The position numbers and the translations under genes were made by a program. From a virus (lineage: Duplodnaviria; Caudoviricetes): 64,000 nucleotides of DNA. The stretch covers positions 1 to 64,000 of the IMG/VR virus record IMGVR_UViG_2837218921_000006; one strand, written 5' to 3'. Below are positions 14,232 to 31,565 of the stretch, in pieces. Every line of letters starts with the position of its first letter. The stretch's first letter is position 1. The notes under the pieces were generated by a model that saw only the letters and a list, made by a program, of their open reading frames with translations, did no database searches and had not been told where the DNA came from.

Positions 14232-14240
14232 CTTGAAATT

Positions 14241-14275: not shown

Positions 14276-14443
14276 TCTTATTTTTGAAGATTGTCCACAA
14301 ATTGTCCACCAAATGAAGAGCTGCGCTGATGTGGACAAAAATTTTTCGATGTTGAGTGTTAAATTTTCTCAAACATTATGGCCGGGGTGCGTGTTTTGTA
14401 TTTCGGTGCGAATTTTTCGTGCTGCAACAACTATCCCCCATTT

Positions 14444-15433
14444 ATGAACAACGAGGAAAAAATTGAACACGCAAAAGGGCTTCTCCGCGAATGGAAAGCC
14501 ACACACCACGAGGAATACTGCAACTTCACCGACTGGATGCATGACCGCGAAGGCCCCGGCTTCATCGCGGTATTCAACCATGCCAAGGCTTTCATGCCGC
14601 AATTTGAGACAGCCGTGCTGCTGCATCTTAAAGATGACAGCTCGAATGATGTGGGCCATCTGGAAAAGATGCTTGTCGAGGGAGGCATGGAGAACCATCT
14701 GCTGACAGGGCTGAATACTCCCCACATACCCGGCAACATTTTCCTGCCGATGTTGGCATGGATGTTCTACGGGCGCAGCTTCGAGTGTATGGTGGAGTAC
14801 GGAGAAGACCTTATCAGAAATCCCAAGACTAATTTTCTTATACGCTTGGGAGCGAAACACCATATCAAGTGGATAATCAAGAGCAGCATAGCATTGAAAG
14901 GCCGAACAGAAGAGGACTGGGCTAACTTTGTCGAGGAACAGCGCGAGATGGGCAGCGAACCTAACGTTACCGCCAAGACCATCGCCAAGTTGAAGACAGC
15001 TTCGGAAGAAATACGGGAATTTGTAAAACCCGCAGGAAAGAAAGGTGCTCCGGGCAGAGCCGCCCGTCGTCGCCCGTTGACCGAGCTTTTGCCCAATGGC
15101 GACAATTATCTCTTTGACTGCATCGACAACCATGTGAAGATACGCAATAGCGGCAAGGATTTCGCCATGCTATTTATCGTGCTTAACGAGGGGCAGGCGT
15201 TGGCGAGAACCAATATCGTCGAGTTTCATTCCGCTCTCTCCGAAAGATACAAGGATAATCCCGGAATACCAATCCCAACCCCGCGCAGCATACAGGAGGG
15301 TCACAAGAGCTATATGGAGCTTACCGAGTACAAGGGCAACAAAATCCGAATGTTCGAGCGGCCGGAGTATATTTCCGAATACAATGACATCCGGGAGAAG
15401 CTGAGTGTAGCCGATTATATGTTTGCCGACTGA
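14444..15433 (+). CDS. Hypothetical protein of the IME
   Basis: Long ORF, ATG 14444, followed by a hairpin; no motif recognised. Confidence 0.7.
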   Translation: MNNEEKIEHAKGLLREWKATHHEEYCNFTDWMHDREGPGFIAVFNHAKAFMPQFETAVLLHLKDDSSNDVGHLEKMLVEGGMENHLLTGLNTPHIPGNIFLPMLAWMFYGRSFECMVEYGEDLIRNPKTNFLIRLGAKHHIKWIIKSSIALKGRTEEDWANFVEEQREMGSEPNVTAKTIAKLKTASEEIREFVKPAGKKGAPGRAARRRPLTELLPNGDNYLFDCIDNHVKIRNSGKDFAMLFIVLNEGQALARTNIVEFHSALSERYKDNPGIPIPTPRSIQEGHKSYMELTEYKGNKIRMFERPEYISEYNDIREKLSVADYMFAD

Positions 15434-15807
15434 CATAAGCGCTCGACCAAAACCATAATGCAGAAGCCATCTGACAATTTTGTCGGGTGGCTTTTGTCGT
15501 TTTTGGCAGTTTGGTTTACCCCTATTTCAGACAAATTTCTTCGTTTTATTTCGTTACGAACCAAAACGAATTTAACCCACTATCTATCAGTGTTATACAT
15601 TTGCAAGGGCACGAGATTTGTGCTTTCTTTGCACCGCTGTAACGCTGAAAACGCATAGTGGTAACGAGGCTCAACGGGGAAAATAGACCGGTCGCCCCCA
15701 ACGCCTCAATACGATTGCCGATGCGTCAGGCTGAACAGCCTTTGACTGCATTTAACTGTTGTCGGTGCGGTCAATGTCTTAACCCAGATGACGCGAATAA
15801 AATCAAC

Positions 15808-16125
15808 ATGACAGGTTTATCCGAACTTTTGCAGGAAGGAGTGGCCGGGCTTACACTGGCCATCCCCCTGTGCGACCTCAAGGAATTTGCCGACTATATA
15901 GTAGCAAAGACCAAGGAGGAACTGCTGCCTACGTTGAAGGCGGCGGACACAGATCCGCTTATTCCCCGTTTGGAGGTGATGCGGATGCTTGGTGTATGCG
16001 CCAACACCCTTAGAAACTGGCGTAGGAGCAAATATCTTGAAGCCGTGCTTGTGGGCGCGAAAGTGTATTACCGCACGTCGGCTGTTAACAAAGTCCTTAA
16101 TGAGTATGGAAAAGAACGTATCTGA
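15808..16125 (+). CDS. Helix-turn-helix excisionase-like protein
   Basis: PRLEVMRMLGVCANTLRNWRR...GAKVYY HTH_17-type motif. Confidence 0.85.
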   Translation: MTGLSELLQEGVAGLTLAIPLCDLKEFADYIVAKTKEELLPTLKAADTDPLIPRLEVMRMLGVCANTLRNWRRSKYLEAVLVGAKVYYRTSAVNKVLNEYGKERI

Positions 16126-17479
16126 CAGAAAAGGTATCGACCCGATGCTCGTGCTCGGCAAGGCCGTTGACATGAGCGTGAAGATTAAAGGCGGCGATTT
16201 CCCTTTGGGTGCCATGCCTATGAAGATTCAGCGTATCGTGCGGGAGGCGAATGAGTGTTACGGTTACCCGGTGGATTATCTGGCAGGAGCTATGCTTGTG
16301 GCTGTCGGGCTGGGTATCGGCAATACCCATTTCGCCCGGCTCAAAGGGAAATGGGATGAGAGCGCGATTCTTTTCATGGCTCTTGTCGGCAGACCCGGTG
16401 CCTGTAAGTCGCATCCGCTGAATTTCGCCATACGTCCGTTCACTGAGCTGGACGGTAAGGCAACACGCGCATACGTCAAGGAGTGCGAGGAATACGAGCG
16501 TCAGCGTGAACTGCCGATGAAGGAGCGTACAGCCCCACACCCTGTGGCCCCGGTATGCAAACGTTTTCTTATTTCTGATGCCACCCCGGAAGCCATGCTG
16601 CTTATTCACTCGCAGAATCTGCGTGGCATACTTATGTGGAATGACGAGCTTGCAGGATGGTTCAAGAACTTCAACCGCTACAACAAAGGTTCTGACGAGG
16701 AATACTGGCTCAAACTGTTCAATGCCAATCCGTCGTTCTCCGACCGCAAGGGCGTGAAAAACTCGGTTTATATCAGCCGTCCTTTTATCTCGGTTGTGGG
16801 AACTATACAGAACGGTATACTCAATGAGCTGGCTCAGGGAAGTCGCACCTCAAATGGTTTCATCGACCGTCTGCTGTTCGTTATGCCCGGCAATCAGGAC
16901 AAGCAGCCGTGGAGCGACAGAGAACCATCGTTCGACATAGAAGCGGCATGGGCTGACATCATCGGCAGACTTGTGGCAATGCCCTACGAAACCGATGATG
17001 ACGGCAATATCGTCGCTGGGATTCTGCCTTTCACTCCTGAGGCAAAATCGCGACTTTACGAATGGCAACGTCAGAACACTGAGGAATGTAACCGGGAGGA
17101 ATGTGACGCACTGAAAGGTGTCTATAACAAGTTCGATTTCCATGCCATACGCTTTTGTCTAATAATGCAAATGGCGCGCTGGGCATGTGGTGAAGCTGAC
17201 AAATCGGAAATAGAGCTTGTATCGGTTGAAAATGCCATATCACTTGTGGATTATTTCAAGACAACCGCCACAAGAGTGCAGGGCATTATCCGCGAGCTGT
17301 CGCTGTCGGAACTGCAAAGAGCCGTGATGTCGGCTCTACCCGATGAGTTCACAACTGAACAGGGTGTTGAAATCGCAGCCGACAATTCTATGCCGGAGCG
17401 TACTTTCAAGGATTTTATCAGGCGTTTCACCGGGATTCACTTTCAGAAAATACGTCATGGAATTTATGGCAAGATATGA
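16100..17479 (+). CDS. DUF3987/YfjI-like P-loop helicase-type protein
   Basis: GRPGACKS Walker A, DATPEA, NDELAGW, VGTIQ, NGFIDRLL. Confidence 0.82.
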   Translation: MSMEKNVSDRKGIDPMLVLGKAVDMSVKIKGGDFPLGAMPMKIQRIVREANECYGYPVDYLAGAMLVAVGLGIGNTHFARLKGKWDESAILFMALVGRPGACKSHPLNFAIRPFTELDGKATRAYVKECEEYERQRELPMKERTAPHPVAPVCKRFLISDATPEAMLLIHSQNLRGILMWNDELAGWFKNFNRYNKGSDEEYWLKLFNANPSFSDRKGVKNSVYISRPFISVVGTIQNGILNELAQGSRTSNGFIDRLLFVMPGNQDKQPWSDREPSFDIEAAWADIIGRLVAMPYETDDDGNIVAGILPFTPEAKSRLYEWQRQNTEECNREECDALKGVYNKFDFHAIRFCLIMQMARWACGEADKSEIELVSVENAISLVDYFKTTATRVQGIIRELSLSELQRAVMSALPDEFTTEQGVEIAADNSMPERTFKDFIRRFTGIHFQKIRHGIYGKI

Positions 17480-17569
17480 CTGTAAACCTGCATTTTCTGC
17501 ACTTTTTGCATTTTCCTCCAACCAAAATGCAGATAATGCAGATAGTGCGAACCGATTTTTTGAGAATCT

Positions 17570-18655
17570 ATGAATAATATACACCGATTCATTCTCCAGC
17601 CATACAAAGGAGTGGCTACACGACATCCCTGCCCCGCCTGCCACAAGAAACGTTGTTTCAGCCGGTATATTGACACCGAGAAACAAATCTCGTTTCCCGA
17701 CGATGTCGGCAGATGCGACCATGAACAGAGCTGCGGCTATCATCTTACGCCGAAGGAATATTTCGAGCGTAATCCACAGGCGAAGCCTGTGCACTGTGAT
17801 TTCGCAACTCCGTCAGCATGGCGAGCCAAACCGACCGAGCAGCTAAAGCCTACCTCCTTCATCGCGGCAGAGACTGTTTCACAGACTCTGCACGGATATG
17901 AGAAGAACAATCTCTATCTGTTCCTCCGCTCCAAGTTTGGGCCCGAGGACGCGCTCCGTCTGATGAAGGATTACCGCGTAGGCACATCGAAGCACTGGCC
18001 GGGATCATGCGTCTTCTGGCAGACCGATATTAAAGGTTGTGTCCGCACGGGTAAGGTCATGCTCTACAATGCCGAAAACGGCAAGCGTGTCAAAGAGCCA
18101 TTCAATCATGTGACATGGGTTCATTCGCTGTTGAAGTTGCCGGAGTTCAATCTGCGTCAGTGCTTTTTCGGCGAACACCTCTTGCCGATGAACCGAGGCA
18201 AACCGGTTGCCATTGTCGAGAGCGAAAAAACTGCAATCGTGGCATCTTATTATCTGCCGGAATATGTGTGGCTGGCAACAGGTGGTAAAAACGGTTGCTT
18301 TAATGCCGATGCACTTCGTGTTCTCCGTGGCTGTCAGGTTATCCTGTATCCCGATATTGGCGCGACCGACCAGTGGCGGCAGAAGCTGAGTTTGTTACGC
18401 AGTCTCGGTATCGAGGCAAGCATCTTCAACCTCCTTGAAGAAGTTGCCACTGATGACGAGCGAACAGCCGGACTCGACATAGCAGATTATCTGCTGCAAA
18501 TCGAGCCTGACCAAGCGATACTGCAATCAATGATACGCTGTAATCCGATTTTGCAGAAACTCATGGATGATCTGCAACTCACTCTTGTGTCAGTTGAACG
18601 GTATAACCCGGATACTGATACTATTCACAAACCCTCAAAAACTGATAAATCATGA
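17570..18655 (+). CDS. Zinc-ribbon + Toprim primase-like protein (DUF6371-type)
   Basis: CPAC...CDHEQSCGYH; IVESEKTA, WLATGG, LYPD. Confidence 0.82.
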   Translation: MNNIHRFILQPYKGVATRHPCPACHKKRCFSRYIDTEKQISFPDDVGRCDHEQSCGYHLTPKEYFERNPQAKPVHCDFATPSAWRAKPTEQLKPTSFIAAETVSQTLHGYEKNNLYLFLRSKFGPEDALRLMKDYRVGTSKHWPGSCVFWQTDIKGCVRTGKVMLYNAENGKRVKEPFNHVTWVHSLLKLPEFNLRQCFFGEHLLPMNRGKPVAIVESEKTAIVASYYLPEYVWLATGGKNGCFNADALRVLRGCQVILYPDIGATDQWRQKLSLLRSLGIEASIFNLLEEVATDDERTAGLDIADYLLQIEPDQAILQSMIRCNPILQKLMDDLQLTLVSVERYNPDTDTIHKPSKTDKS

Positions 18656-19131
18656 CAGCAAAGAAATCTCCGTCAACAACCGCATCCAAGTCAACTCAGT
18701 TGACCGATGCGCCCGAATCCAAAGTATCAACCCATAATCCCGATTTTATTATGAAGTCAGATAACTCAACCAACCCTGTCAATCCTGTTAACAGCGACAA
18801 CGCTGTCAACAGCACTTCTCCTGCAAACACAGACAATCTGTTCGACAACGAGCAGACGGCAACCGACACTACCGAGCCACCGAAGCAACAGCGCGTGGGC
18901 AAGCAACAGCGCAAATCGGATTACGCCGATTTCAAGGCTACCTATCTCACGCCGGCAAAGCTGGAGAAGCGTCACCCTGTCAACATTGAGGACAGCGTGT
19001 GGGAGAAGTTCGAACGCATCGCCCGTATCCTCGGCGACCGTGACACCACCGTCGGCAGCTACATCAACGCCGTCCTCTTGGAGCATCTCAATCTCTATGC
19101 CAACGACATCGAAATATGGCGTAAACTCTGA
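18652..19131 (+). CDS. DUF3408-like ribbon-helix-helix protein
   Basis: C-terminal TVGSYINAVLLEHL motif typical of Bacteroidetes mobilization modules. Confidence 0.7.
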   Translation: MTAKKSPSTTASKSTQLTDAPESKVSTHNPDFIMKSDNSTNPVNPVNSDNAVNSTSPANTDNLFDNEQTATDTTEPPKQQRVGKQQRKSDYADFKATYLTPAKLEKRHPVNIEDSVWEKFERIARILGDRDTTVGSYINAVLLEHLNLYANDIEIWRKL

Positions 19132-19139
19132 GATGATAA

Positions 19140-19295
19140 TGTCGGGATACCACTGCACCCGGTACACCGTGGGGCAGCTTCCCGATGAACGTAGTGAATT
19201 GGGAAGGCAAGGATATGTTTCGGGATTTCTTTTTCTCCGAAAACGACTCCCCAAAACTGCGCAGCATAAGCCGCTCTTTGCCTCCCCGATTCACA
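19140..19295. promoter_or_regulatory. Probable oriT region
   Basis: Non-coding gap before mobC/relaxase with GGGAAGGCAA...TTTGCCTCCCC and TTTCGG...CCGAAA inverted repeats. Confidence 0.5.
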
Positions 19296-19307
19296 TAAAC
19301 CACAACA

Positions 19308-19703
19308 ATGTCTACTATGAGTAAACCTACTGTCAGGAAGGGCGGTCGTCCCTCTAAACCGACCGATGAGAAGCGCACCCATGTGGTGACAATCAAACTG
19401 AACGATGCCGAATACTCCGACCTTCTGGAGCGGTCAAAAGCCGCCGGAGTAAAGATGGCGGAGTATGTCAGGCATGGCGCGTTCCGTCTCACTATCGTCA
19501 GTCGCCTGAGCGAGATTGAAAAGGAGATTGCCAAAGGAATACTAAATCTCAGCTCCGATTTCAATCAGGCAATGACCTGTTTTCATCAGCTCAAACTTCG
19601 CAGCGCGGCCAATAAATTAGCCGCCGTCGTCGATAAGATGTTTGACATTCTCAAAAAATTAAGACCCAATAAAGAGACTGACTATGTTTGCAAGAATACT
19701 TAA
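19308..19703 (+). CDS. MobC/MobA-like relaxosome accessory protein
   Basis: GGRP..KRTHVVTIKLNDAEY..AAGVKMAEYVR ribbon-helix-helix. Confidence 0.85.
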   Translation: MSTMSKPTVRKGGRPSKPTDEKRTHVVTIKLNDAEYSDLLERSKAAGVKMAEYVRHGAFRLTIVSRLSEIEKEIAKGILNLSSDFNQAMTCFHQLKLRSAANKLAAVVDKMFDILKKLRPNKETDYVCKNT

Positions 19704-20640
19704 AAGCGGCACGTTTCACGATGTCGTGGGGTATGTGACGCGCCAGTTCCACGACCCGAAAGAGTACACACCAGACACATGGCGCATCATCGGAAGCGAT
19801 AATATCTTCATCTCCGACTATGCGAAAATGGTTCAGTCGTTTGAAGCGATACATGGATTTATGCCCGGCAAGGAGAATCCGGCAGGACATATTTCCATCA
19901 GTTTTGACACCGCCGATGCGTCAAGACTGACCGATGAATTCATGGCTCAGCTCGCAAAAGAGTATATAGACGGTATGGGAATCAAGAACACCCAGTATCT
20001 TGTCGTGCGCCATCTGGAAACCGAACATCCGCATTTTCATATCGTCTATAACCGTGTGAATATGTCAGGCAATGCAGTCGACGAGCGCAAGAATTTCAGG
20101 CGCAGCGACCGTGTTGTAAAGGCTATCAAGGACAAATACGGACTCACATACTCGCCGCTGAAACAGAAATACGAGGACAAAATTCCGGTATTTAAGGAGC
20201 GGATCAGTCAGGCGATTTATGGCTGTAAGTCGTGGGATGAATTCTCGCGCCGACTCGCCTGTGCAGGAATTGAGGTAAAATTCCATGATGACCACAACAC
20301 CGGCAAACACATCGGAGTGAAATTTACAGACGGTGACATAACGGTCAACGGGTCTAAAATCGACCGTGCTTTCACATATCGCCGACTGAACAACCTCTTT
20401 GAGTTCAACCGCAGGCATGGGCAACAACAGTCTGATCATGCTCCGGCACACCCCAAAGTAACGGTCGAATATACCCCGACGCAAAAGCCCTCACTTGTAG
20501 AAGATGTGATTGAAGCCACCGTCGGGGCAATCGGAAATTTGTTCACTCTCGGCCCCGGCTTCGATCCTGAGGAACAGGCGTTTCAAAACGCCATCAAGAA
20601 AGAAGAAGCCAAACGTAAACGCAAATCAAGAAAAATCTGA
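19684..20640 (+). CDS. MOBP-type relaxase
   Basis: VGYV, GHISISF, VVRHLETEHPHFHIVYNRV (3H motif). Confidence 0.92.
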   Translation: MFARILKSGTFHDVVGYVTRQFHDPKEYTPDTWRIIGSDNIFISDYAKMVQSFEAIHGFMPGKENPAGHISISFDTADASRLTDEFMAQLAKEYIDGMGIKNTQYLVVRHLETEHPHFHIVYNRVNMSGNAVDERKNFRRSDRVVKAIKDKYGLTYSPLKQKYEDKIPVFKERISQAIYGCKSWDEFSRRLACAGIEVKFHDDHNTGKHIGVKFTDGDITVNGSKIDRAFTYRRLNNLFEFNRRHGQQQSDHAPAHPKVTVEYTPTQKPSLVEDVIEATVGAIGNLFTLGPGFDPEEQAFQNAIKKEEAKRKRKSRKI

Positions 20641-20642
20641 AT

Positions 20643-21380
20643 ATGTCAAAGCTATATGATGACGTCAAGAAACAAGGTGAGCAGATTGACGACCTGCAAA
20701 AGACAGTAACCAACCACACCACCCGCATCGAGACCCTCGAAACAAAAGCGAAGGCAACGCCACCGCCACAAGCAGTCAATCAAGGGCCGATAACGGTGAA
20801 ATTGCCCGACAACATAGCAACCAATGAAAGCATCGGCAAACTGCTTGATGAGAAGCTACTGGAAACTTCAACCGACGGCACACTCAAAAAAGTCATGGAG
20901 CAACTGCCGGGTAGCCTGTCGAAAGGAGTTGCGGATGTACTGTCCGACAATCTGGGAGACAAGGTCAAGGACGCTCTTTATGAAGGATTCCGCAGGGAGT
21001 TTGCGGATGAGCGAAGAAAGCTCTATGACGTGGTGAACGACATGCGCTACAAAGCTCAGTCGATAATTTGGGGGCAATGGTGGCGTGCTACCCCACATTG
21101 GGTCTATGCCATCTTTGCTGTTCTACTTATCGCCGCCGGAGGATTCGGTTATGGATTCTTCTATCAGCTCAACAAAAACTCAAAGCTAAAAGATGTGGAA
21201 TGGCTCTACCGTTACGAGCGTGGACTTAACCGCGACATGAATGTGGTAATGCACCGTGAACGCCTTATGCTCCACGGCAAGCCCAACGAAGTTGACAGCA
21301 TGAGGTCGCTAATCCGACATCAGGAGCATAGAACCCAAGCCGACACCACTTTTGTAAACTACTATCCTACCAATCCCTAA
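20643..21380 (+). CDS. Membrane-anchored coiled-coil mobilization-associated protein
   Basis: Directly follows relaxase; TM segment VYAIFAVLLIAAGGFGYGFF. Confidence 0.65.
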   Translation: MSKLYDDVKKQGEQIDDLQKTVTNHTTRIETLETKAKATPPPQAVNQGPITVKLPDNIATNESIGKLLDEKLLETSTDGTLKKVMEQLPGSLSKGVADVLSDNLGDKVKDALYEGFRREFADERRKLYDVVNDMRYKAQSIIWGQWWRATPHWVYAIFAVLLIAAGGFGYGFFYQLNKNSKLKDVEWLYRYERGLNRDMNVVMHRERLMLHGKPNEVDSMRSLIRHQEHRTQADTTFVNYYPTNP

Positions 21381-21389
21381 ATATATCCC

Positions 21390-21432
21390 ATGCCACCGGC
21401 TGCTACATGAGCTTTCGGTGGCATTTCTCTTT
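21390..21432 (+). terminator. Intrinsic terminator closing the mob operon
   Basis: ATGCCACCG...CGGTGGCAT followed by T-rich tail. Confidence 0.65.
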
Positions 21433-21536
21433 TAATCGGAGTAATACTGATATGTTTTTCAGCATATCGCATTGTTGGTTTAAATATTATCCGTAATTTT
21501 GTTAATTAAGATGGAATAGCAATCTCAACTCCTGTA

Positions 21537-23948
21537 ATGATTCTGACGCGATGTATAAGCATATCTATTGATAATGGTGTGACCTTAAATCAGACCAAGA
21601 CACGCCGCACTCTCATCGTGCCAAATCAGGCGATTGCAACCTACGTCACCCAGTGGACTTACGACAGCCACAACCGACTCATCGAGATGATCTATCCCGA
21701 CGAGGAGAAGGTTACTTATTCCTACAACCTCGGAGGTCTCCTTGAAAAGGTTCGCGGCGAGAAGTCATACGGCTATGACTACATCACCAAGTTAGGCTAC
21801 GACAAGTTCGAGCAGCGCAGCTACCTGAAGTACTGCAACGGCGCGGAGACATTCTACACCTACGACAACCGTCGCCGCCTGAGCAATCTCGCTGTCAACA
21901 GCGGAGGCACATCCATTATGGACAACGCCTATACGTTTGATGCGGTCAGCAATGTACTTTCGGTGGCAAATAATGCTTCTCTCCCTGCCAACGGCAATGC
22001 CGGCGGCCAGATGTCGCACACCTATACTTATGACGGTCTCTATCGTCTCGCCACCGCCAAAGGTACATACACCGGAGCAGACAACAAGTCCGCATCCTAT
22101 ACCCTCGCTATGGGCTATGACAATATGCACCGCATCAAGTCGAAGAGCCAGCATCTCACTCAGGACAACGTTCAGTTCAACGGCACCCTCAATGTCGGTT
22201 ACGACCTCACTTACGCCTACAGTTCGGAAGAAGGAAAGAAATTCCAACTCGAAAGTGTAAAGGATGTTAATTACCGCACTGAGGAGACTCCCGAAGGTCA
22301 ACAAGTGGAGAACGGTCACATCTACCAGTACGACAAAAACGGCAACCTTATTTACGTCAACACCAATCGCGTAATGACGGATGGCCATAGAGATAACAGT
22401 GTCGGAGAGCGCAAGCTTATCTGGGATGAGGAGAATCGTCTGCTTGCTGTTGACGACAACGGCTTCGTGTCCAACTACTGGTACGACGCCGACGGAGAGC
22501 GCACTGTCAAGACATCCGGAGAAAGCGATCAGGTCTATGTCAACGGAGTCTTCTCCGGTGGCTCGACCAACACCGCGAAATTCTCCCTCTATGTCAGCCC
22601 GTACCTCGTGGCTAATCAGGGAGGTCGTTACACCAAACATATCTACGCTGGTTCGCAGAGAATTGTGTCCAAGGTCGGCGATTTCGCCTCCTACGGCTCA
22701 GACCCGCGCCGCATAGAATATGCCGGTGCCAACACCGACGGCCTTTCGGTTGACTACAAGTCAAAGTATGCAGCGCAGCAGCAGGTTATCAAGGACAACT
22801 ACAAGTTCTTCGATGTACCGTACAACGGCACTGACAACGACAACTATGCTGACGGCGAAGGATTCTGCTGCAATGACGGTTCAATGGAGGCGGCTGTTGC
22901 GCAGGCTCGGAAGGCTCAGACCCGCGCGGTTTCGCGGTCTTTCAAAGATCCCGACAACTACGAGAACTTGCAGTTCTTCTATCACCCCGACCACCTCGGA
23001 AGTTCCAGCTTCATTACCAACCTTGACGGTGAAGTAGTTCAGCACATCGAGTATGTCCCCTTCGGCGAAGTCTTCATCGAGGAGCGCAACAACGTGTGGA
23101 ACACTCCTTATCTCTTCAACGCTAAAGAGTTCGATGAGGAGACAGGTATGTACTACTACGGTGCCCGCTACTATGACCCACGTATCAGCCTGTGGATGTC
23201 AACTGACCCAGCACAAGAAGAATATTATAGCCATTCTTCCTACTGTTTCTCAGGCAATAATCCTATAATATACATAGATTACAATGGAAAAGAATGGACT
23301 GATTTAGATGGGCAGGTCATAACAGATACTAAGAATATCAAGAAATTCATATTTTATTCAAAAGATTTCAGCAAACAAGCAAAAGTGCAATATAATGACG
23401 GCATCAAAAAGTATGGAGCTGGAAGTGTAGCCATGAGTCAGACAAGTACTACTCAGGCTTTCTCAGAAGATTGGAAAAATATGAATGGAACTGAGATTTC
23501 TGAAGTATTAATTATGACGCACGGGAAGAATCAATCAATTCTTGTTGGTGAAGGTCAGCAGTTTACGGCAACAGGAGATGGGAAAACTAATATTTCAAGG
23601 TCTCCTGCTCCAAATATTCAAGATCTTCCTCAACCGACTGGCAATATTGAAAATGCGATGTTATATATGTATTCTTGCCATTCTGCAGACACAAATCCAC
23701 ATCCACACGGAGAAGGAGATCATCAACAAGGAGCTTTGCTTGGGTCACAACGACCAATAGCGTATGTATTTGCTCAATATTTCAAATTTTATGGAGTGCA
23801 AGGCACAAGTGAATCTGTAAATTACCATTACGGCTTAATGGATTTATTTTCGCCTTCATCAGATTATTTGCAACCATATCCAGCAAATGGAGGTAAATGG
23901 CGCATTTACTACAATTCCAATAACTCATTAAGAAAGCAGGGCAAATGA
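21537..23948 (+). CDS. N-terminally truncated Rhs/YD-repeat protein with C-terminal toxin domain 1 (putative His-Gly/Ser-Cys cysteine peptidase)
   Basis: YD repeats; HPDHLGS, YYYGARYYDP, NNPIIYIDYNG core; variable tip containing IMTHG and MYSCHS. Confidence 0.88.
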   Translation: MILTRCISISIDNGVTLNQTKTRRTLIVPNQAIATYVTQWTYDSHNRLIEMIYPDEEKVTYSYNLGGLLEKVRGEKSYGYDYITKLGYDKFEQRSYLKYCNGAETFYTYDNRRRLSNLAVNSGGTSIMDNAYTFDAVSNVLSVANNASLPANGNAGGQMSHTYTYDGLYRLATAKGTYTGADNKSASYTLAMGYDNMHRIKSKSQHLTQDNVQFNGTLNVGYDLTYAYSSEEGKKFQLESVKDVNYRTEETPEGQQVENGHIYQYDKNGNLIYVNTNRVMTDGHRDNSVGERKLIWDEENRLLAVDDNGFVSNYWYDADGERTVKTSGESDQVYVNGVFSGGSTNTAKFSLYVSPYLVANQGGRYTKHIYAGSQRIVSKVGDFASYGSDPRRIEYAGANTDGLSVDYKSKYAAQQQVIKDNYKFFDVPYNGTDNDNYADGEGFCCNDGSMEAAVAQARKAQTRAVSRSFKDPDNYENLQFFYHPDHLGSSSFITNLDGEVVQHIEYVPFGEVFIEERNNVWNTPYLFNAKEFDEETGMYYYGARYYDPRISLWMSTDPAQEEYYSHSSYCFSGNNPIIYIDYNGKEWTDLDGQVITDTKNIKKFIFYSKDFSKQAKVQYNDGIKKYGAGSVAMSQTSTTQAFSEDWKNMNGTEISEVLIMTHGKNQSILVGEGQQFTATGDGKTNISRSPAPNIQDLPQPTGNIENAMLYMYSCHSADTNPHPHGEGDHQQGALLGSQRPIAYVFAQYFKFYGVQGTSESVNYHYGLMDLFSPSSDYLQPYPANGGKWRIYYNSNNSLRKQGK

Positions 23949-25280
23949 CAAAAAAAAGACTTTTTCTCATTGTCGTATTTACTGCGACAATAGTCTTAAG
24001 TCTACTCTCTATCGCTTATAGCAAGCACTATATCAAATATAGTGCTTGCTATAAGCTCACTACACTTAAGACTCCGTACTATCCTGATGCCTATAGGTTT
24101 ATAAATACTAAAGAAGATCTTGAGGTTTGTATTGAATCGGTGAACGATACTGTTGATGTTAAGAATTTCATTGAGTCCAATAAAATAGACTTTAGAAGAT
24201 ATTCCTATGTGATGGTATTTGGTGCCCCTATTAAGGAGATGTATTATAGTTTAAAAACAACTATTTTTGACGATAAATCACCAAGTTATGCAAAAGCAAT
24301 AAAATACAATAAAAAATGTGTTTTTATAAAATATGCTCATCCAACCGGGTATATATATATATACCGAATAAAAAAGGACCTAAGCCTAACAGGTTTCAAT
24401 GGAATCTAATGGCATAGTCTATGTAAACACCAACCGGGTTATGACTGACGGACATAGGGACAACAGTGTCGGTGAGCGCAAGCTCATCTGGGATGAGGAG
24501 AATCGTCTGCTTGCTGTGGACGACAACGGTTTCGTGTCCAACTACTGGTACGATGCCGATGGTGAACGCACTGTCAAGACTTCGGGCGAAAGCGATCAGG
24601 TCTATGTCAACGGAGTTTTCTCCGGCGGCTCGACCAACACCGCTAAATTCTCCCTCTATGTAAGCCCGTATCTCGTGGCAAATCAGGGAGGTCGCTACAC
24701 CAAGCATATCTACGCCGGTAGCCAACGCATCGTGTCCAAGGTCGGCGATTTCGCCTCCTACGGCTCAGACCCGCGTCGCATCGAGTATGCCGGTGCGAAC
24801 ACCGACGGTCTTTCGGTTGACTACAAATCGAAGTATGCAGCCCAGCAACAGGTAATCAAGGACAACTACAAGTTCTTCGATGTTCCCTACAACGGTACTG
24901 ACAATGACAACTATGCCGATGGTGAAGGGTTCTGCTGCAACGACGGCTCTATGGAGGCGGCGGTGGCAGAGGCACGGAAGTCTCAGACCCGCGCGGTTTC
25001 GCGGTCGTTCAAAGACCCCGACAACTACGAGAACTTGCAGTTCTTCTATCATTCCGACCACCTCGGCAGCTCCAGCTTCATCACCAACCTTGACGGTGAA
25101 GTGGTTCAGCACATAGAGTATGTCCCCTTCGGAGAGGTCTTCATCGAGGAGCGAAACAACGTATGGAACACGCCTTATCTCTTCAACGCGAAGGAATTCG
25201 ATGAGGAAACAGGTATGTACTACTACGGTGCTCGTTACTATGATCCACGTCTCAGTCTGTGGATGTCAACGGATCCAATG
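22345..25280 (+). repeat. Diverged direct repeat of the Rhs core, ~22345-23210 vs ~24410-25278
   Basis: Proteins almost identical from YVNTNRVM to LWMSTDP while DNA shows many synonymous differences. Confidence 0.93.
23945..24409 (+). CDS. Putative immunity protein 1 (exported or membrane-anchored)
   Basis: ATGA overlap with toxin stop; N-terminal hydrophobic segment; AT-rich. Confidence 0.7.
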   Translation: MTKKRLFLIVVFTATIVLSLLSIAYSKHYIKYSACYKLTTLKTPYYPDAYRFINTKEDLEVCIESVNDTVDVKNFIESNKIDFRRYSYVMVFGAPIKEMYYSLKTTIFDDKSPSYAKAIKYNKKCVFIKYAHPTGYIYIYRIKKDLSLTGFNGI

Positions 25281-25994
25281 GAAGAAATTTCGCCCGATAT
25301 ATCCAGTTATACTTTTTGTCATAACAATCCGATAAATCGTGTTGACCCATTAGGATTAACTGACTATTTTAACGAAAATGGAGCATATATTCAAACCATA
25401 GATGATCAAAAAGATGTCAGGGTAATGGTTTTTATAACGAAGAAGGATAAGGATAAAGCTGCACTCGCAGTCAGCGAAGGCAAATGTATGGCTGTTCCAT
25501 CAAGAGAAGTTGTAAAGACCATGAAAGAAACATATGATCTAACCGAGAAAACCGGCAATGAACATGGTTTCCGGGTTGGAAAAAACGGCACGATTTCCCC
25601 AATTGTTGAGGGAGAGGGCGATGTTGTTAACGATGCTCACTGGAAAGATGCAATTGACGCTCTTGTCAACGTTGGAGACAGGGTTTCCTATGATGTGCAT
25701 TCTCACCCGCAGTTAATCTTCCATGAAGGTGATAGCAAGTTATTATACAATAATTTACCCTCTCAAACTGACATAGATAATACTGTTGGAGATAGTCCTA
25801 ATGTAGTATTAGGTTATAAGATGGTTCAGCTTCCTAATAATCATAATACAATTGGTGGTTCACCAAATGTAACCGTTGAAAAACGAATACGATTCTATAA
25901 CAGGACTGGGGCATTGAACTCTGACAATTACAAATTCTCATCATTTGAGAGAGCTGTAGATAAGATTCATAAATGGAAACCAAAGACAAAATAG
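24399..25994 (+). CDS. Orphan Rhs core + C-terminal toxin domain 2 (JAB/MPN-like)
   Basis: Near-identical core copy; NNPINRVDPLG; tip with NEHGF...VHSHP...PSQTD (E..HxH..S..D JAB signature). Confidence 0.88.
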   Translation: MESNGIVYVNTNRVMTDGHRDNSVGERKLIWDEENRLLAVDDNGFVSNYWYDADGERTVKTSGESDQVYVNGVFSGGSTNTAKFSLYVSPYLVANQGGRYTKHIYAGSQRIVSKVGDFASYGSDPRRIEYAGANTDGLSVDYKSKYAAQQQVIKDNYKFFDVPYNGTDNDNYADGEGFCCNDGSMEAAVAEARKSQTRAVSRSFKDPDNYENLQFFYHSDHLGSSSFITNLDGEVVQHIEYVPFGEVFIEERNNVWNTPYLFNAKEFDEETGMYYYGARYYDPRLSLWMSTDPMEEISPDISSYTFCHNNPINRVDPLGLTDYFNENGAYIQTIDDQKDVRVMVFITKKDKDKAALAVSEGKCMAVPSREVVKTMKETYDLTEKTGNEHGFRVGKNGTISPIVEGEGDVVNDAHWKDAIDALVNVGDRVSYDVHSHPQLIFHEGDSKLLYNNLPSQTDIDNTVGDSPNVVLGYKMVQLPNNHNTIGGSPNVTVEKRIRFYNRTGALNSDNYKFSSFERAVDKIHKWKPKTK

Positions 25995-26512
25995 CTATTA
26001 AATTAGCAATTATGTTAATTGGTGTATGCACCCTGATTTCTTGTAAAGCAATTATCTCCCCCAACACGAATGGGGGAGATGATTACTCTCTCATAAAAGT
26101 ATTAGGATATGCCTATGCCAATCCAAGTTCTGGTGATACAATTAATACCATACCATCATATTCTTTCAATTTGCCTAAAAAAATGGTAAAAAGGGTGGAT
26201 TATGATATGGGGATAACTGTTGTAGAACTCAAAGATTATCAGTACATTTATATCATATATGAACCAAATAAGTTTTCGGATTATAGTGAACTTATTAGTC
26301 ATCTTAAAGTTTATTTGGAAGAGTCGGACAATTCTCGATTAAATAAACTTAGCAATCACATTAATCTAAATAAAAACACTAAGCGTTTAAATCGTTTTTA
26401 CAGAAAAGATAATTTTGAAATTGGCATACTCAATGTCCTTCCTCAAAATTACGAGGACCTTTTTAGTGTGATTGAAAACTCGTTTAATGTACAGTATCGA
26501 AGCCATAATTAG
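25973..26512 (+). CDS. Putative immunity lipoprotein 2
   Basis: Overlaps toxin end; signal peptide with LISC lipobox. Confidence 0.72.
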   Translation: METKDKIAIKLAIMLIGVCTLISCKAIISPNTNGGDDYSLIKVLGYAYANPSSGDTINTIPSYSFNLPKKMVKRVDYDMGITVVELKDYQYIYIIYEPNKFSDYSELISHLKVYLEESDNSRLNKLSNHINLNKNTKRLNRFYRKDNFEIGILNVLPQNYEDLFSVIENSFNVQYRSHN

Positions 26513-26592
26513 GTCATCACGAAATTCTCATATGAGTGTTTGGTGAGATACGATTGATAGATAAACAGAGTTCAATAAAATTCTCTTAGAAT

Positions 26593-26635
26593 TGAGGCTG
26601 GAATCAGGTTTTTACTAAAACTGATTCCAGCCTCA
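26593..26635. terminator. Strong hairpin after Rhs cassettes
   Basis: TGAGGCTGGAATCAG...CTGATTCCAGCCTCA perfect 15-bp stem. Confidence 0.75.
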
Positions 26636-26819
26636 TAATATAAATGTTTGTCGTTAAGCGTGACGTTCAGAAAATTAAACTATGACAAAATCTTTTAGGT
26701 GAATTAAAATTGGAAAATCTATATGCGGGTAGAATTATAATTTTGTACATCAAAATTCGCCCCTTGAAATTAAATTCACAAAAATTATTCCTATGTTTTT
26801 AATATACCTTCGAAACATA

Positions 26820-27008
26820 TCTATTTGGTATAATTCACAACATCGGTTATTTTGCTCATAAAGTCAACCTCCTCAATCATCAGGTCGTTGATGCTCTTGG
26901 TGAAATTCTTATAATGCCGAGAGCCTTGTATGAAAAGATTGAAAATAGCTTGTGCCGCATTTATTATACCGTAATTGTCCCTTAAATCATCCCGGACACT
27001 CTCAATCA
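26820..27008 (-). pseudogene. Remnant of a TetR paralogue C-terminus
   Basis: Translates as ESVRDDLRDNYGIINAAQAIFNLFIQGSRHY.. vs ERVRDDLRDNYGVENPSQAIFNLFIQGSKHY in the adjacent gene; no start or HTH. Confidence 0.8.
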
Positions 27009-27056
27009 GCGTAAAAATAATAGCATATCAAATTTACTGAAATGAATGATATATTA

Positions 27057-27599
27057 TTAATTAGAATCAAAATTCATTGACTCGATAAAGATATTTCCGA
27101 TATTCTCGACATAGACGCGGTTTAGGTCGAGAATGTTGTTTACACGGCCTCCGACTATGCGGCTCATGAAGTCTTGCTCCAGCTGCATCAGTTCGCCGAC
27201 GTTTGATGTGAATTGGTCGTAGTGCTTGGAGCCTTGAATGAATAGATTGAAGATTGCCTGTGACGGATTTTCGACACCGTAGTTATCCCTTAAATCATCG
27301 CGGACTCGCTCAAACGGGGTCTTGTATCTGTTATAGAAGTCGGAGACAGTAGCCTTGGATAGTTTCTCGCGTTCGTCATCCGAGAGCGCGAACACCGGGA
27401 AGAACAGTTCGTCGAGGATATTGGCGAAAAGAGTCTTTTTATTCTTGAAATAGTATGCGATAGCACCCCTTGTCTGCTTGATTACCTTTTCAATATCGGA
27501 AATCGCGATAGCGTCCCAACTGCCGATAGCAACCAGCGGATAGCACTTTCTAAGTATATCCGACCTATTTCTTAACGATTGTTCCCGATGTTTCGACAT
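27057..27599 (-). CDS. TetR/AcrR family regulator
   Basis: N-terminal ISDIEKVIKQTRGAIAYYFKNKKTLF HTH. Confidence 0.82.
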   Translation of the reverse strand: MSKHREQSLRNRSDILRKCYPLVAIGSWDAIAISDIEKVIKQTRGAIAYYFKNKKTLFANILDELFFPVFALSDDEREKLSKATVSDFYNRYKTPFERVRDDLRDNYGVENPSQAIFNLFIQGSKHYDQFTSNVGELMQLEQDFMSRIVGGRVNNILDLNRVYVENIGNIFIESMNFDSN

Positions 27600-27780: not shown

Positions 27781-28386
27781 TTATGCTGTTATCAATTTTA
27801 GGTCGAAGAAGAAAATCCGGCTTTTCAAATCCTCATCGGCAGATATGCCAAACGCATCTTTCTCTCCTTGCTCGGTCTTATATAGAGGCTTAAAGCCGTT
27901 TTTCAGGTAGTAATGCAGAGTGGATTCGGTATTGTAGGCATCAACGAGCATATAGCGGCAAGCCGCCTTATTATTCTCGTCCATAAACCAGTATTTGAGG
28001 ACATCCATGAGCTGAGTGCCTATATTCAATCCTTGACCTTGAAATGTCTTGTTCACACCGAGGCGACCAATCAACACCGCAGGATAGCTGCGGTGGCGCT
28101 TTTGCTGGGGTATCTTTCGTTGGAGAGCATTTCGTGACGGATTGTCGAGTGTATAGGTCTTAATGCCATCGTAGGAGAGAGTGGCAATCGCCACAATTTC
28201 ACGCTGATTCTCTCGGTTTATCCAACAATACGTTTTGCCAAGCAATTCATCCTCATAGAGAAAGACATCATGGCTGAAAAAATCGTCAAGGTCGTAATCT
28301 CCACAAGAAAAGGGGTCACAGTAATCTGCGACCTCCTTGGTATAAGGCACCATAAAGGTGTTTTCTACGAAAATAAATTCAGCCAT
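27781..28386 (-). CDS. GNAT acetyltransferase, AtaT/TacT-like toxin candidate
   Basis: FSCGDYDLDDFF, YPAVLIGRLGV, QGQGLNIG, LVDAYN, YYLKNGF. Confidence 0.85.
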   Translation of the reverse strand: MAEFIFVENTFMVPYTKEVADYCDPFSCGDYDLDDFFSHDVFLYEDELLGKTYCWINRENQREIVAIATLSYDGIKTYTLDNPSRNALQRKIPQQKRHRSYPAVLIGRLGVNKTFQGQGLNIGTQLMDVLKYWFMDENNKAACRYMLVDAYNTESTLHYYLKNGFKPLYKTEQGEKDAFGISADEDLKSRIFFFDLKLITA

Positions 28387-28388
28387 TG

Positions 28389-28568
28389 TCAATTTTTCCG
28401 TGGAGGAAATATGATGTTCTTGGCACTCTCCAACATTGTGGAAAGCACCTTACGCTGTGATTCCGAGAGTTTTGGCGTAGGCAATTTGCCATTGCGCTCC
28501 GCTTCCTCGGTGAAGATTCTTGCATCTTCGCCCCAAAGTTCGGGGGATGTTTTAATTGTCATTGCCAT
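28389..28568 (-). CDS. 59-aa putative antitoxin (not in ORF track)
   Basis: MAMTIKTSPELWGEDARIFTEEAERN...FPPRKN*; stop 2 nt before the GNAT ATG. Confidence 0.7.
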   Translation of the reverse strand: MAMTIKTSPELWGEDARIFTEEAERNGKLPTPKLSESQRKVLSTMLESAKNIIFPPRKN

Positions 28569-28651
28569 AGTTTTATCTCCTTTTACTAATTCAATTACAA
28601 AGGTACAACAAATTTCTCACATAATCAGCTTAATAGGCTGATAAAATAACA

Positions 28652-29998
28652 TCAGTCGAGCAAGCTGACAAGTTCTTTTTTCAGATCCTCGTCAATCTCC
28701 CTGTATCTGGCGAAAGCCTTGCTGCCCTCTTTATGCCCTGACAAAGCCCCAACAAGACTGGGATCCTTGACTTTCTTGTATAGATTGCCGATGAATGTAC
28801 GCCGTGCCATGTGGCTGCTTGCAATCTCATTTATCGGGCGTTTCTCCTCTTCCCCGGTCTTTGGATTGCGTACAGTCACCATTCGGGTTATCTCGCAGAG
28901 AGTGAATATCTTTTTTATTGCCTCGTTGTATTTCTGTGCGCTGATGAAAGGAAACAGTTTCTCAGCTCCTTTGGCAGAATATTTCTCCACCAATTGCCGT
29001 GCGCGTGTATTCAGTGGCACTCGTACAACCTCCGGGCGTTCATTCTTGGTCTTGTTGGGGATGTACTCGATTGCACCGTTTATGATGCTTCCCGACGTCA
29101 TTTCCAACAAGTCCGACACTCGGCAACCGATAAGGCACTGAAAAACAAATATGTCGCGTTGCACCTCCAAAGCCGGTTTATCCGACAGGTCGAAATCGGC
29201 TATCAAATCGCGCTCCTCTATTGTGATATAGTAAGGAGTGCCGTATTTCTCACTGCCTATACCTGTGAAAGTTGCGAACGGAGTGCGGTCGAGATAGCCA
29301 CGTCTCACACACCAGTTGAAGAAAGCCCGAAGCCTTTTTAGTATCCCTATGACAGAATTCTCGCCGCGTTTCTCCGGGCGACGGGGCTTACGTGCAGTCT
29401 CAACGACATCAGAGGCGGTCTTGTATATTGAGGGATATTTGTCATAAATTTTCGGCTCATTGACCACAAATTCCTTGAACCGCTCTATCTCAGCGGAATC
29501 AAAGTCGTTGAGAATAAGCGTGAACTTTGTCCGGGTCGTTTTCTGCCTGTACAGCTCAAAGCGACGCAACAGTCGGGCAAGCACCTTGTAGTGGCCTGAC
29601 AGTGGTGCGCCGTCAAGATGCTTGTCGAGAAATTCATTGAACACATCGAAAAACGACATCTTCTTCGGAGCGGCCTCAAACAGTTCCGGGTGGTGGTGAC
29701 GCAGAATAGCGTCCTCGAAAAATTCTTTGGAGAGAGACTTTTGTGGTGTGCTTACACAGAGCGAAATCAGTCGGCTCTCCAAAGATATCAGATTGTCATT
29801 TATTATTTGTAACTTTGCTAGTGTCTTTCGGTCTGCGCGTGGCATAATGATCTTACCGTCACGAAAACGGGTAGCCTCAACAAAGATGCCGCTTTTCAGG
29901 CGCAGACGCAGTTCGCGCGACACCGACAGTCGCAACATGATTTCAGCTTCGCCATTGGCGTTGACCTTAGAGGATAGAGAGCGTGTTATGGTTGCCAT
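28652..29998 (-). CDS. Tyrosine integrase of the tRNA-Lys IME
   Basis: LIGCRVSDL, SHMARRTF, LSGHKEGSKAFARY; adjacent to att. Confidence 0.93.
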   Translation of the reverse strand: MATITRSLSSKVNANGEAEIMLRLSVSRELRLRLKSGIFVEATRFRDGKIIMPRADRKTLAKLQIINDNLISLESRLISLCVSTPQKSLSKEFFEDAILRHHHPELFEAAPKKMSFFDVFNEFLDKHLDGAPLSGHYKVLARLLRRFELYRQKTTRTKFTLILNDFDSAEIERFKEFVVNEPKIYDKYPSIYKTASDVVETARKPRRPEKRGENSVIGILKRLRAFFNWCVRRGYLDRTPFATFTGIGSEKYGTPYYITIEERDLIADFDLSDKPALEVQRDIFVFQCLIGCRVSDLLEMTSGSIINGAIEYIPNKTKNERPEVVRVPLNTRARQLVEKYSAKGAEKLFPFISAQKYNEAIKKIFTLCEITRMVTVRNPKTGEEEKRPINEIASSHMARRTFIGNLYKKVKDPSLVGALSGHKEGSKAFARYREIDEDLKKELVSLLD

Positions 29999-30754
29999 AT
30001 TCAGAGAGATTATTTTGATGTGGTACAAAATTACGCAATTTTGTACCACATGGCAAAATTTCCGTCCACGCTTTGTCCACATCTTCTGCCTCTACTTGCG
30101 CCCTGATGATTTCCAAAGTTCAATGTCTCGAATGGCTTTGTTATGATAAGGCGCTGATAATCAATCAATACGTAATAATTAGCTTTGAATGCTAAAATTC
30201 ATTACGATTCAATACGATTCACAAATGTCACTCCCAGGCGGATCACGATAAGATTTATCAAATCGAAGAAAACCTCTGAAAATCAACGATTTTCGGAGGT
30301 TTTGCTTTTTGCCTCTTACCCCAAATCGGCGCAATATACGGCAATATCCGGTGTGCAAAAAGGGAGCAAAGAATTTTATACTGAAATTGCTCCCTTTTTA
30401 GGGGATATTGGGTTGCTTTTCAATATTTTGCGCCGATTGCGACTACTTTATACCTGCTTCCTGAGGGAGCTTCAGAGGGAACAGTATGCAGACAATACAG
30501 CACTTTTGTCAAAGTATGCCAAACTCTGAATCCGGCTTGTCAACCACCTGTCGGCACTTTCTTTTTTAAGAATATTCCATTTGAATAATTGTTAAAAAAG
30601 GGAGCAAATCGGGGAGCAAATCAGCGAAAACCATAGAAAATATGATTTTGCTCCCTCTTTACACCCCGTTTTTCTGATGTCTTCTGGTATTTACAGATTG
30701 TAAAACTGAAAAATTTTGCGTATCTTTAAGATACCATTAAAGCCACAAGACAAA

Positions 30755-31557: not shown

Positions 31558-31565
31558 TGGGGCAC

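Follow-up and report, generated by a model that had tools for sequence, protein, structure and literature searches.

A predicted mobilizable element of Muribaculaceae carries a truncated rhs locus that appears to capture tip/immunity cassettes from chromosomal toxin loci

Results

Two truncated Rhs modules and their adjacent small genes

The stretch of DNA analysed here, in the following the window, comprises 64,000 nucleotides (positions 1 to 64,000) of the IMG/VR virus record IMGVR_UViG_2837218921_000006 and contains an element of about 16 kb at a tRNA-Lys gene, which carries two tandem, truncated Rhs modules on its plus strand. The first module, an open reading frame (ORF) of 803 aa (ORF1; 21537..23948), consists of a short leader, a core fragment of 538 codons (21594-23210) and a unique C-terminal tip (tip1; 23211-23948). 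It is always followed by imm1 (23945..24409, plus strand), encoding a protein of 154 aa with an N-terminal hydrophobic signal or membrane anchor. The second module (ORF2, 531 aa; 24399..25994) combines a shorter core fragment (24417-25287) with tip2 (25290-25994), after which imm2 (25973..26512, plus strand; 179 aa with a lipoprotein-like signal) always follows. Both ORFs match the Rhs_assc_core model TIGR03696 (ORF1 residues 506-584, E 5e-18; ORF2 residues 241-320, E 2.1e-22) and diverge completely after this RHS-associated core domain. The second core copy repeats 858-871 nt of the first (24417/24420-25277/25287 versus 22353-23210) at 89.6% DNA identity and encodes nearly identical protein. 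Compared with a relative of 3,130 aa, the homology of ORF1 to full-length genes begins at nt 21594/21595, equivalent to residue 2319/2320, and the core of ORF2 begins at about residue 2571. Neither ORF has a signal peptide or a delivery domain, and the shell is incomplete in both.

This arrangement of truncated core, unique tip and adjacent small gene is the layout of orphan rhs-CT/immunity modules. No full-length rhs gene lies upstream at the same locus, where the modules sit between the mob genes and the integrase, and the whole 85-kb record contains no further Rhs core. An earlier interpretation made from the letters of this DNA, which we refer to as the sequence-only reading, had described two tandem units of Rhs core, unique tip and small exported gene without a secretion N-terminus, the first beginning mid-repeat (at ~21585) and the second repeating only the last ~870 bp of the core; the ORFs, the TIGR03696 matches, the signals and the measured homology limits agree with this description. 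Both tip-imm pairs were linked at every examined locus having the respective tip, imm1 with tip1 in L003, L004 and L005 and imm2 with tip2 in L004, L009-L011, L080 and L106 (L, G, P and X numbers denote our loci, genomes, proteins and RNA runs). Of the 27 relatives detected for imm1, none is named. A homologue of imm1 with 58% identity was also found in a Segatella copri rhs locus (L036) without detectable tip1. Within the core coding sequence of ORF2, ARAGORN called a tRNA-Ala at 24482-24569, which is probably false.

The surrounding integrative mobilizable element

The tRNA-Lys(ttt) gene (14159..14232, plus strand) was identified by ARAGORN, and its last 14 nt (14219-14232) form the left copy of a 14-nt att direct repeat, whose right copy (30233..30246, plus strand) was found by repeat search. 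Homology to sibling elements (G003, G341 and G005) begins at 14233, directly after the left repeat, and homology to L012 and L015 stops at 30246, the end of the right repeat; because of these limits we consider the element boundaries to be real. Within 14378..21380, Pfam identified backbone genes of the types DUF6043, HTH_17, DUF3987, Zn-ribbon/DUF6371 primase-like, DUF3408 and NikA-like on the plus strand, including a MobA/VirD2 relaxase (19684-20640) and, as the last gene before the cargo, a gene for a 245-aa protein (20643-21380). On inspection, the sequence 3' of the latter contains an inverted repeat (hairpin) followed by a T-rich run (21390..21423, plus strand). Beyond the cargo, the minus strand encodes a GNAT acetyltransferase (27781..28392), a backbone gene kept in siblings, and a tyrosine integrase (28652..30082).

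Genes for secretion or conjugation machinery were not detected by Pfam in the 16-kb element, in agreement with the sequence-only reading of an att-flanked element with a relaxase and no secretion genes. An integrative mobilizable element (IME) is recognized by an integrase, a relaxase and att repeats that lie at a tRNA gene, while it lacks conjugation machinery of its own. As judged from these features, 14233-30246 (~16 kb, no strand assigned) is a tRNA-Lys IME of a Muribaculaceae chromosome, with mobilization predicted from its genes.

Between imm2 and the right part of the backbone lies a 3' flank of chromosomal type (26513..26869, plus strand), which includes an inverted repeat (26593-26635) and is 99.1-99.4% identical to L004 and L009. 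Identity to chromosomal loci stops at 26869, and contigs from RNA libraries of four runs diverge after the same position. Element-type DNA starts at 26841, so the two types overlap by 29 nt. Adjoining the flank is what remains of a TetR-like gene's C-terminal half (26854..27012, minus strand), recognizable as a direct repeat and by a tblastn match of 64% to residues 94-149 of the intact gene. Similar remnants occur beside the intact gene in L005, L008, L012 and L015. The intact TetR-like gene (27057..27599, minus strand; 180 aa, weak TetR_N match) is the putative right homology arm. Its product is 45-60% identical to proteins of 176 aa in L004/L009 and 179 aa in L016, and TetR-like homologues also close chromosomal rhs loci.

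Leader, start codon and promoter-like motif

Upstream of the core fragment, ORF1 starts with a leader of 19 codons including the ATG (21537..21593, plus strand), which showed no homology to full-length rhs in comparisons with full-length genes and siblings. The promoter-like motif TAATTTTG (21494..21501, plus strand) is located 36 nt upstream of the ORF1 ATG and matches TAnnTTTG, which we take to be the -7 promoter motif of Bacteroides. TAnnTTTG is enriched in the window (59 found versus 34.8 expected; none of 100 shuffles reached 59). The ATG, the 19-codon leader and TAATTTTG are kept in all nine other loci from a scan with the junction pattern and also in L006.

The sequence upstream of the junction falls into two classes that are only 40-55% identical to each other. 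In both, the core is joined at the identical nucleotide, the ATG lies 19 codons upstream and TAATTTTG ~36 nt before the ATG. Both also have a hairpin after the 245-aa gene, which in class B differs in sequence and has the same position. The window backbone is a mosaic, class B-like (90-98%) to ~21211 and then class A (98-100% to L008) up to the junction. The leader peptide itself is not conserved, with 6 of 19 residues common to the two classes. We consider these comparisons good evidence for a kept start codon and a kept, putative promoter, and weak evidence for a functional leader peptide. On this Bacteroidota genome, a scan for sigma-70 promoters and terminators was uninformative. The term 'start-less', which the sequence-only reading had applied to both modules, has to be abandoned: ORF1 and ORF2 each begin with an in-frame ATG, and that of ORF1 is preserved among siblings as described above.

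The full-length parent toxin

The longer relatives of ORF1 are ~3,100 aa in size and up to 97% identical over ORF1 residues 20-570, and core identity to full-length rhs genes reaches 97-100%. In the size class of 1,407-4,015 aa, 908 relatives were found at E<=0.001 among 7,997 scored candidates. The full-length relatives carry SpvB, FG-GAP, TcdB_midN, DUF6443 and RHS domains; in P0001, for example, we found SpvB (1.6e-23), TcdB_toxin_midN (5.2e-18) and RHS_repeat (1.8e-14) behind a signal-like N-terminus. The parent toxin is by sequence a Sec-exported SpvB/TcB-TcC-like Rhs protein, its export being predicted from the signal, and belongs to the TcdB/TcaC-type polymorphic toxins of Bacteroidetes, as catalogued by Zhang et al. 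(PMC3482391). The TcB-TcC cocoon architecture is found only in the full-length relatives. The window retains just the TcC-like end, with ORF1 residues 453-585 aligning to the shell end of TccC2, TccC3 and YenC2. For each window tip there are full-length genes that have it as their main tip, L004 for tip1 and L009, L010 and L011 for tip2; a full-length tip2 gene is present in the isolates C36_59_MI_BP and C34_57_MI_BP.

Full-length genes are preceded by a gene for a protein of 734-991 aa (L004 38-3007, L009 59-3034, L016 707-2911) with a weak match to the C-terminal sorting domain of the type IX secretion system (E 1e-3 and 8e-5, below the Pfam cut-off), which may bear on the route of the giant toxin to the surface. 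Many forms of 1,675 aa (among P0004-P0017) start with IS66 transposase domains fused to the TcdB-mid/RHS part, and in three genomes (G001, G194 and G210) only 220-392 N-terminal residues are kept. Full-length genes seem to be inactivated often.

Origin of the cargo in chromosomal rhs loci

A chromosomal counterpart of the cargo was found in Muribaculaceae Isolate-036 (L004), where a 3,103-aa gene is followed by imm1, ORF2 and imm2 as in the window. Window positions 21595-26550 are 99.9% identical to this locus over 4,956 nt and positions 26543-26869 99.1%, while the rest of the L004 genome shares with the window flanks and backbone only pieces of 165-593 nt at 68-94% identity. In L009, L010 and L011, tip2 and imm2 form the main tip of a 3,087-aa gene and its immunity gene, 98.9% identical to the window. 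In Paramuribaculum intestinale DSM 100749 the cargo is 99.9-100% identical and the backbone only 95%; its full-length gene survives as residues 1-392 only, ending in a multi-copy repeat at a contig end. Because the cargo is near-identical while flanks and backbone differ, these comparisons indicate that the 3' end of a chromosomal rhs locus was copied very recently and moved across species and backbones.

L004 additionally contains a 1.55-kb insertion (14958-16506) in the 3' flank of tip2/imm2. It is flanked by an 8-nt repeat (window 26543-26550) and encodes a 414-aa ORF without Pfam match; RNA run X17 has loose ends there.

Sibling elements and exchange of cassettes

The truncation at residue 2319/2320 is common to 11 other loci (L003, L006, L007, L008, L012, L015, L017 and L104-L107). 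One of these, the rhs-bearing sibling L006, stems from a metagenome-assembled genome (MAG) titled HGM05194 and labelled as part of a human-gut collection. Chromosomal orphans downstream of main genes start at many positions, from 2022 to 2794 in P0001 coordinates. We also considered nt 21594 as a universal orphan boundary and rejected this, since the blastn starts reflect the start of the window core and chromosomal orphans vary. The siblings sharing the junction carry seven distinct tips, and thus show the cassette variation that the sequence-only reading had named as a test of its proposal. In L106, tip2 occupies the first position (100% identical); L007 has as its second tip the one that comes first in L012 and L017 (100%), and L017 has as its second tip the one that comes first in L015 (99.6%). 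These identities indicate that cassettes change place within arrays. In a tree, the cores of elements are intermixed with chromosomal ones and are not grouped by leader class.

Exchange can be read most clearly from L106. Compared with chromosomal L009, it shows ~8% mismatches along the core, then a single mismatch from ~8,700 (the core/tip boundary) to 10,153 and, past a 1.44-kb insertion, 100% identity over 11,591-12,250, reaching 407 nt into the chromosomal TetR-like gene. From 12,212 onwards L106 is of element type (95% to the window), the switch lying within a shared stretch of 39 nt. By its alignment, L106 is the product of a double crossover, with one exchange point in the core and the other within the TetR-like gene. 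Sequence comparison shows that the core fragment and the TetR-like gene act as homology arms, and that elements of this kind have received whole tip/immunity cassettes as copies from chromosomal rhs loci of other species. Every exchange with readable direction went from chromosome to element. The insertion in the 3' flank of L106 (10154-11590) differs from that in L004 and is flanked by a 10-nt repeat (window 26702-26711).

The same mob module occurs without an rhs core in 15 of 19 fetched regions, of which 12 were annotated for cargo (L092, L094 and L096 were left out). Their cargo includes a SUKH-1 immunity-family gene, sets of SNF2, DUF4391 and methylase genes, CHAT and caspase genes, a YhcG nuclease, and two-component systems with outer-membrane proteins. 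The slot is, from these annotations, a general cargo site that often holds defence-type genes, the rhs module being one cargo lineage among several. The nearest non-rhs backbone sibling (L082, 96%) has five small minus-strand cargo genes at 7255-10384, one of which is SUKH-1 (SMI1_KNR4). A scan of viral contigs with ORF1 gave three loci, none with the element junction, and a metagenome scan with the junction pattern gave only four loci. When the 401 genomes were searched with the DNA of the whole element, only the best two candidates of each genome, or in some genomes one, were scored, so that the matches do not amount to a complete map.

Host genomes and RNA libraries

Among the 401 Muribaculaceae species genomes sampled, the N-terminal half of the toxin was matched in 13, three of which hold remnants of 220-392 residues, and the start of the core in 17. 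An rhs-bearing element is present in seven genomes. The search of host genomes for a full-length rhs, which the sequence-only reading had suggested as a check, was positive for one of these seven, G003, with an intact gene of 3,157 aa; G001 has only the N-terminal remnant of 392 aa, and no full-length rhs was found in the remaining five (G004, G005, G093, G344 and G403). The resident core of G003 is 84-88% identical to element cores, with longest identical runs of 41-44 nt. In G005 (Barnesiella sp. WM24), contig C6 (55113-59836) contains short chromosomal core fragments besides the element, corresponding to residues 2213-2300, 2570-2646, 2699-2885 and 2733-2884, and no full-length gene. Muribaculaceae Isolate-013 is a further isolate with the element in which a full-length gene was not found.

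Six RNA runs contain 82-93% of the sampled words of 21381-26900. Contigs from the RNA libraries of four runs from four studies, which may also contain DNA, were mapped to 19600-27700. The contigs cover the cassettes, and their loose ends at 21594 and 26869 lead into chromosomal full-length context. Since a loose end before 21594 continues into full-length coding sequence and the contigs of all four runs diverge after 26869, the cassette contigs are assigned by sequence to chromosomal loci. The element-specific bin 21226-21496 had a depth of 0 in three runs and 9 in one.

Predicted folds of the tips

The model of tip1 has the caspase/hemoglobinase-like fold of a clan CD cysteine protease, including a His-Gly ... 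Cys dyad. Tip2 models as a JAB/MPN-like metallopeptidase of deaminase-like fold with an E ... HxH ... S..D motif. In the models, both tips look like peptidases. Because the immunity proteins carry export signals, the tips probably act outside the cytoplasm. Sequence searches gave little in addition: Pfam at E<=1 returned chance-level matches only for tips and immunity proteins, NCBIfam had no match for imm1 or imm2, and a sequence search of the PDB gave no match for tip1 and two chance-level matches for tip2. In the ESM Atlas we found unnamed Bacteroidota clusters only, plus a DUF4347 lead at 13% for tip1.

Discussion

A mobile rhs locus that may spread immunity

We regard the structural facts and the recombination history as well supported; the function we infer from them. 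On balance, we favour the view that the element, found in mouse-gut Muribaculaceae, is a mobile mini-rhs locus which captures cassettes by homologous recombination and mainly spreads immunity. The cargo begins with a promoter-like motif and a leader of 19 codons, joined to the final 538 shell codons of an Rhs protein of ~3,100 aa; next come the caspase-like tip with its exported immunity gene, then the shorter core with the JAB-like tip and its lipoprotein immunity gene, and finally the chromosomal-type 3' flank and the TetR-like gene as in chromosomal rhs loci. The element's own promoter may drive the array, and a helper conjugative element would mobilize the IME, by which the cassettes could reach new hosts. 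The main benefit would be immunity against the toxins of neighbours, comparable to acquired interbacterial defence (AID). The toxin tips would ride along because of their position between homology arm and immunity genes, and donation of a tip to a resident full-length gene would be possible and secondary. We rank acquired immunity first because most hosts lack the full-length gene and hence the weapon, because the slot favours defence cargo, and because there is a tested precedent in Bacteroides, where orphan immunity genes on a mobile element are reported to protect (bioRxiv 10.1101/471110). The element thus most likely spreads antidotes rather than weapons.

Several observations weigh against this view. 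The strongest is that the toxin parts are intact. Eight of nine complete first-module ORFs are full-size, although a role in immunity alone predicts decay of the toxin. Element cores are, moreover, under strong purifying selection, with a median dN/dS of 0.047 (28 pairs) versus 0.050 for chromosomal main genes (55 pairs) at dS up to ~1. Renewal from chromosomal copies could explain the intact toxin parts, and a function of the toxin parts could do so as well, which keeps the tip-swap and toxin-antitoxin readings discussed below alive. Furthermore, several of the seven host genomes are drafts or MAGs, in which a full-length gene may be missed. No RNA contig bridges 21315-21594 and no transcript of the element copy was seen in the four runs; the RNA contigs as such say nothing for or against expression of that copy. 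Finally, the toxin target need not be bacterial, judging by analogy with Tce1, the nearest solved structure to tip1, for which the authors discuss a possible anti-eukaryotic role (PMC13323088).

Alternative explanations

A bolder version, which we hold only tentatively, is that the element is specialized as a shuttle of cassettes. Having a promoter of its own and two homology arms, the end of the toxin shell and the TetR-like gene, it would undergo allelic exchange with the chromosomal rhs loci of visited hosts and so spread their tip/immunity pairs through the community. If this were true, immunity, and sometimes the weapon, would spread horizontally faster than the toxin genes themselves.

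The sequence-only reading had gone in a related direction and proposed a transferable library of tips and immunity genes for a full-length Rhs encoded elsewhere. Compatible genes do exist and tips do interchange, but an intact full-length gene was present in just one of seven hosts. The immunity half of the proposal fits better than the tip-swap half, because hosts are mostly without the full-length gene and exchange was seen only from chromosome to element. In the tip-swap half, the main role of the element would be to supply a full-length rhs of its host with new tips; homologous recombination in the core would displace the old tip and arm the host with toxin and immunity at once. It would account for the intact toxin ORFs and for tip2 being an orphan in L004 and a main tip in L009-L011, i.e. 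for interchangeable orphan and main positions. A contig from the RNA library of run X20 that joins the core directly to the tip2 module, and the joint presence of element and 3,157-aa gene in G003, point the same way. Yet the full-length gene was not seen in five of the seven hosts and is a 392-aa remnant in one, the resident core of G003 has diverged from the element cores to the extent given above, none of the readable exchanges runs towards the chromosome, and the element leader was in none of the chromosomal arrays examined. We therefore consider the tip-swap library unlikely.

The kept position of promoter-like motif, ATG and leader, together with intact ORFs, would also suit an addiction module, in which truncated Rhs and immunity gene, acting inside the cell like toxin and antitoxin, would stabilize the element. 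A precedent is provided by Salmonella, in which main and orphan Rhs toxins are expressed internally and orphan tips have their own promoter and start codon (PMC7043789). In Salmonella, however, immunity proteins stay in the cytoplasm and the promoters are internal to the core, close to the tip, whereas the immunity proteins of the window carry export signals and the promoter-like motif is outside the core, in element DNA. As the truncated Rhs proteins lack such signals, toxin and antidote would end up in different compartments, and the leader peptide is not conserved between the classes. We consider the addiction module improbable.

We give equally little credence to the rhs fragment being a neutral passenger, that is, a by-product of recombination without benefit that looks intact through gene conversion only. 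Recombination is rampant, the slot accepts many unrelated cargos, and the first ORF of L107 is truncated to 240 aa. Against this, one junction persists in two diverged leader classes and on backbones with only ~80% identity, it spans several genera and one MAG from the human gut, the start codon and the promoter-like motif have been preserved, and no cassette lacks either its tip or its immunity gene. Very improbable, lastly, is a split subunit in which ORF1 would be a free-standing TcC-like protein that forms a complete shell together with a TcB-like protein: at 803 aa, with a tip of 245 aa, it is about as large as TcC proteins, and orphan TcC is known in Tc toxins of insect pathogens (PMC7861908 and PMC11067744), but by alignment to TccC2 and YenC2 ORF1 lacks the first ~80-100 residues of TcC, it has no signal peptide although the full-length protein is predicted to be Sec-exported, and Pfam found no gene for a TcB-like partner in the element.

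Relation to known systems

The orphan rhs-CT arrays reported for Enterobacteriaceae (PMC2935791 and PMC3967940) resemble the cargo in their modules of truncated core, tip and immunity gene and in the occurrence of the same tip as orphan or main tip. They exchange with the main gene through the core, which for the element copy is seen only as capture from the chromosome. The array in the window differs in residing on a tRNA-integrated mobilizable element and not downstream of its main gene, in that the element copies share one truncation point, leader, ATG and promoter-like motif, and in a second arm, the TetR-like gene, that joins the exchange. The parent protein differs as well, being an SpvB/TcB-TcC-like fusion with a Sec signal and not linked to PAAR or VgrG from a type VI secretion system (T6SS).

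The second relevant comparison is with AID-1 on an integrative and conjugative element and rAID-1 of Bacteroidales, which likewise place orphan immunity genes on a gut mobile element (bioRxiv 10.1101/471110). The window has this trait: imm1 and imm2 lie inside an att-flanked IME, and five of the seven hosts have no detected full-length toxin gene. By analogy, the benefit is most likely the same as in AID, namely protection from the toxins of neighbours. AID genes, in contrast, answer T6SS effectors and are described as arrays of immunity genes, whereas here complete tips and part of the shell are kept and the toxin locus itself is the source of the cassettes, through homologous recombination. 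The layout described for rAID-1, with a 5' XerD-like recombinase, a co-directional low-GC array and repeated intergenic motifs, is absent here, since the integrase is at the far end on the opposite strand and the direct repeats include no repeated intergenic motif.

With TcdB/TcaC-type toxins, the parent shares signal peptide, SpvB, beta-propeller, RHS and variable tips, including Tox-JAB and caspase-type tips; the survey in its available text (PMC3482391) covers toxins and not a mobilizable carrier of truncated copies, and the term 'mobile element' has 0 occurrences there. In the literature, most subscription journals aside, we found no paper that reports Rhs toxins from Muribaculaceae or rhs orphans carried by a mobilizable element, and none on a mobilizable element with a truncated rhs locus that has a putative promoter and is reloaded from chromosomal loci. 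Already in print are orphan rhs arrays, C-terminal displacement, TcdB/TcaC-type toxins of Bacteroidetes and mobile immunity islands.

Competition between gut strains is thought to hinge on who owns toxin and antidote. Mobile immunity islands are known for T6SS toxins of Bacteroides, and orphan rhs arrays are known as silent stores beside the main gene. The present case joins both ideas in a Sec-exported SpvB/TcB-TcC-like Rhs system of Muribaculaceae and Prevotellaceae. The store is placed on a mobilizable element and keeps the homology for reloading from chromosomal toxin loci, which happened across species very recently (99.9% identity). Provided that the immunity genes are expressed and protect, a route would be open by which resistance to a neighbour's toxin spreads through a community. 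This would also account for the rarity of full-length genes (13 of 401 sampled genomes, three of them remnants) next to widespread fragments.

Other features of the record

The source record is an 85-kb IMG/VR 'provirus', whose phage part is a Mu-like prophage at ~35-60 kb, separate from the element. The prophage (34988-60404) contains genes for AAA_22, DUF3164, Mu F, Mu portal, Gp36, Mu-like protease, capsid and amidase proteins and is the probable reason for the provirus class of the record. Within it, a reverse transcriptase gene (45472-46776) adjoins a gene for a DUF4376 protein (44984-45469), and the two could belong to a diversity-generating retroelement. A second mobilizable unit (1955-9422) encodes DUF5906 primase-like, CHC2 zinc finger and Toprim proteins and a Mob_Pre relaxase, and includes three tandem tyrosine recombinases on the minus strand (4034-7239). 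ARAGORN further reported a 'tRNA-???' with a 4-nt anticodon at 33966-34040. Just to the right of the att repeat of the IME, an integrase-like ORF (30716-31627) has arm-binding and SAM-like domains with no match to a catalytic domain; it may be left over from a different element that used this tRNA site.

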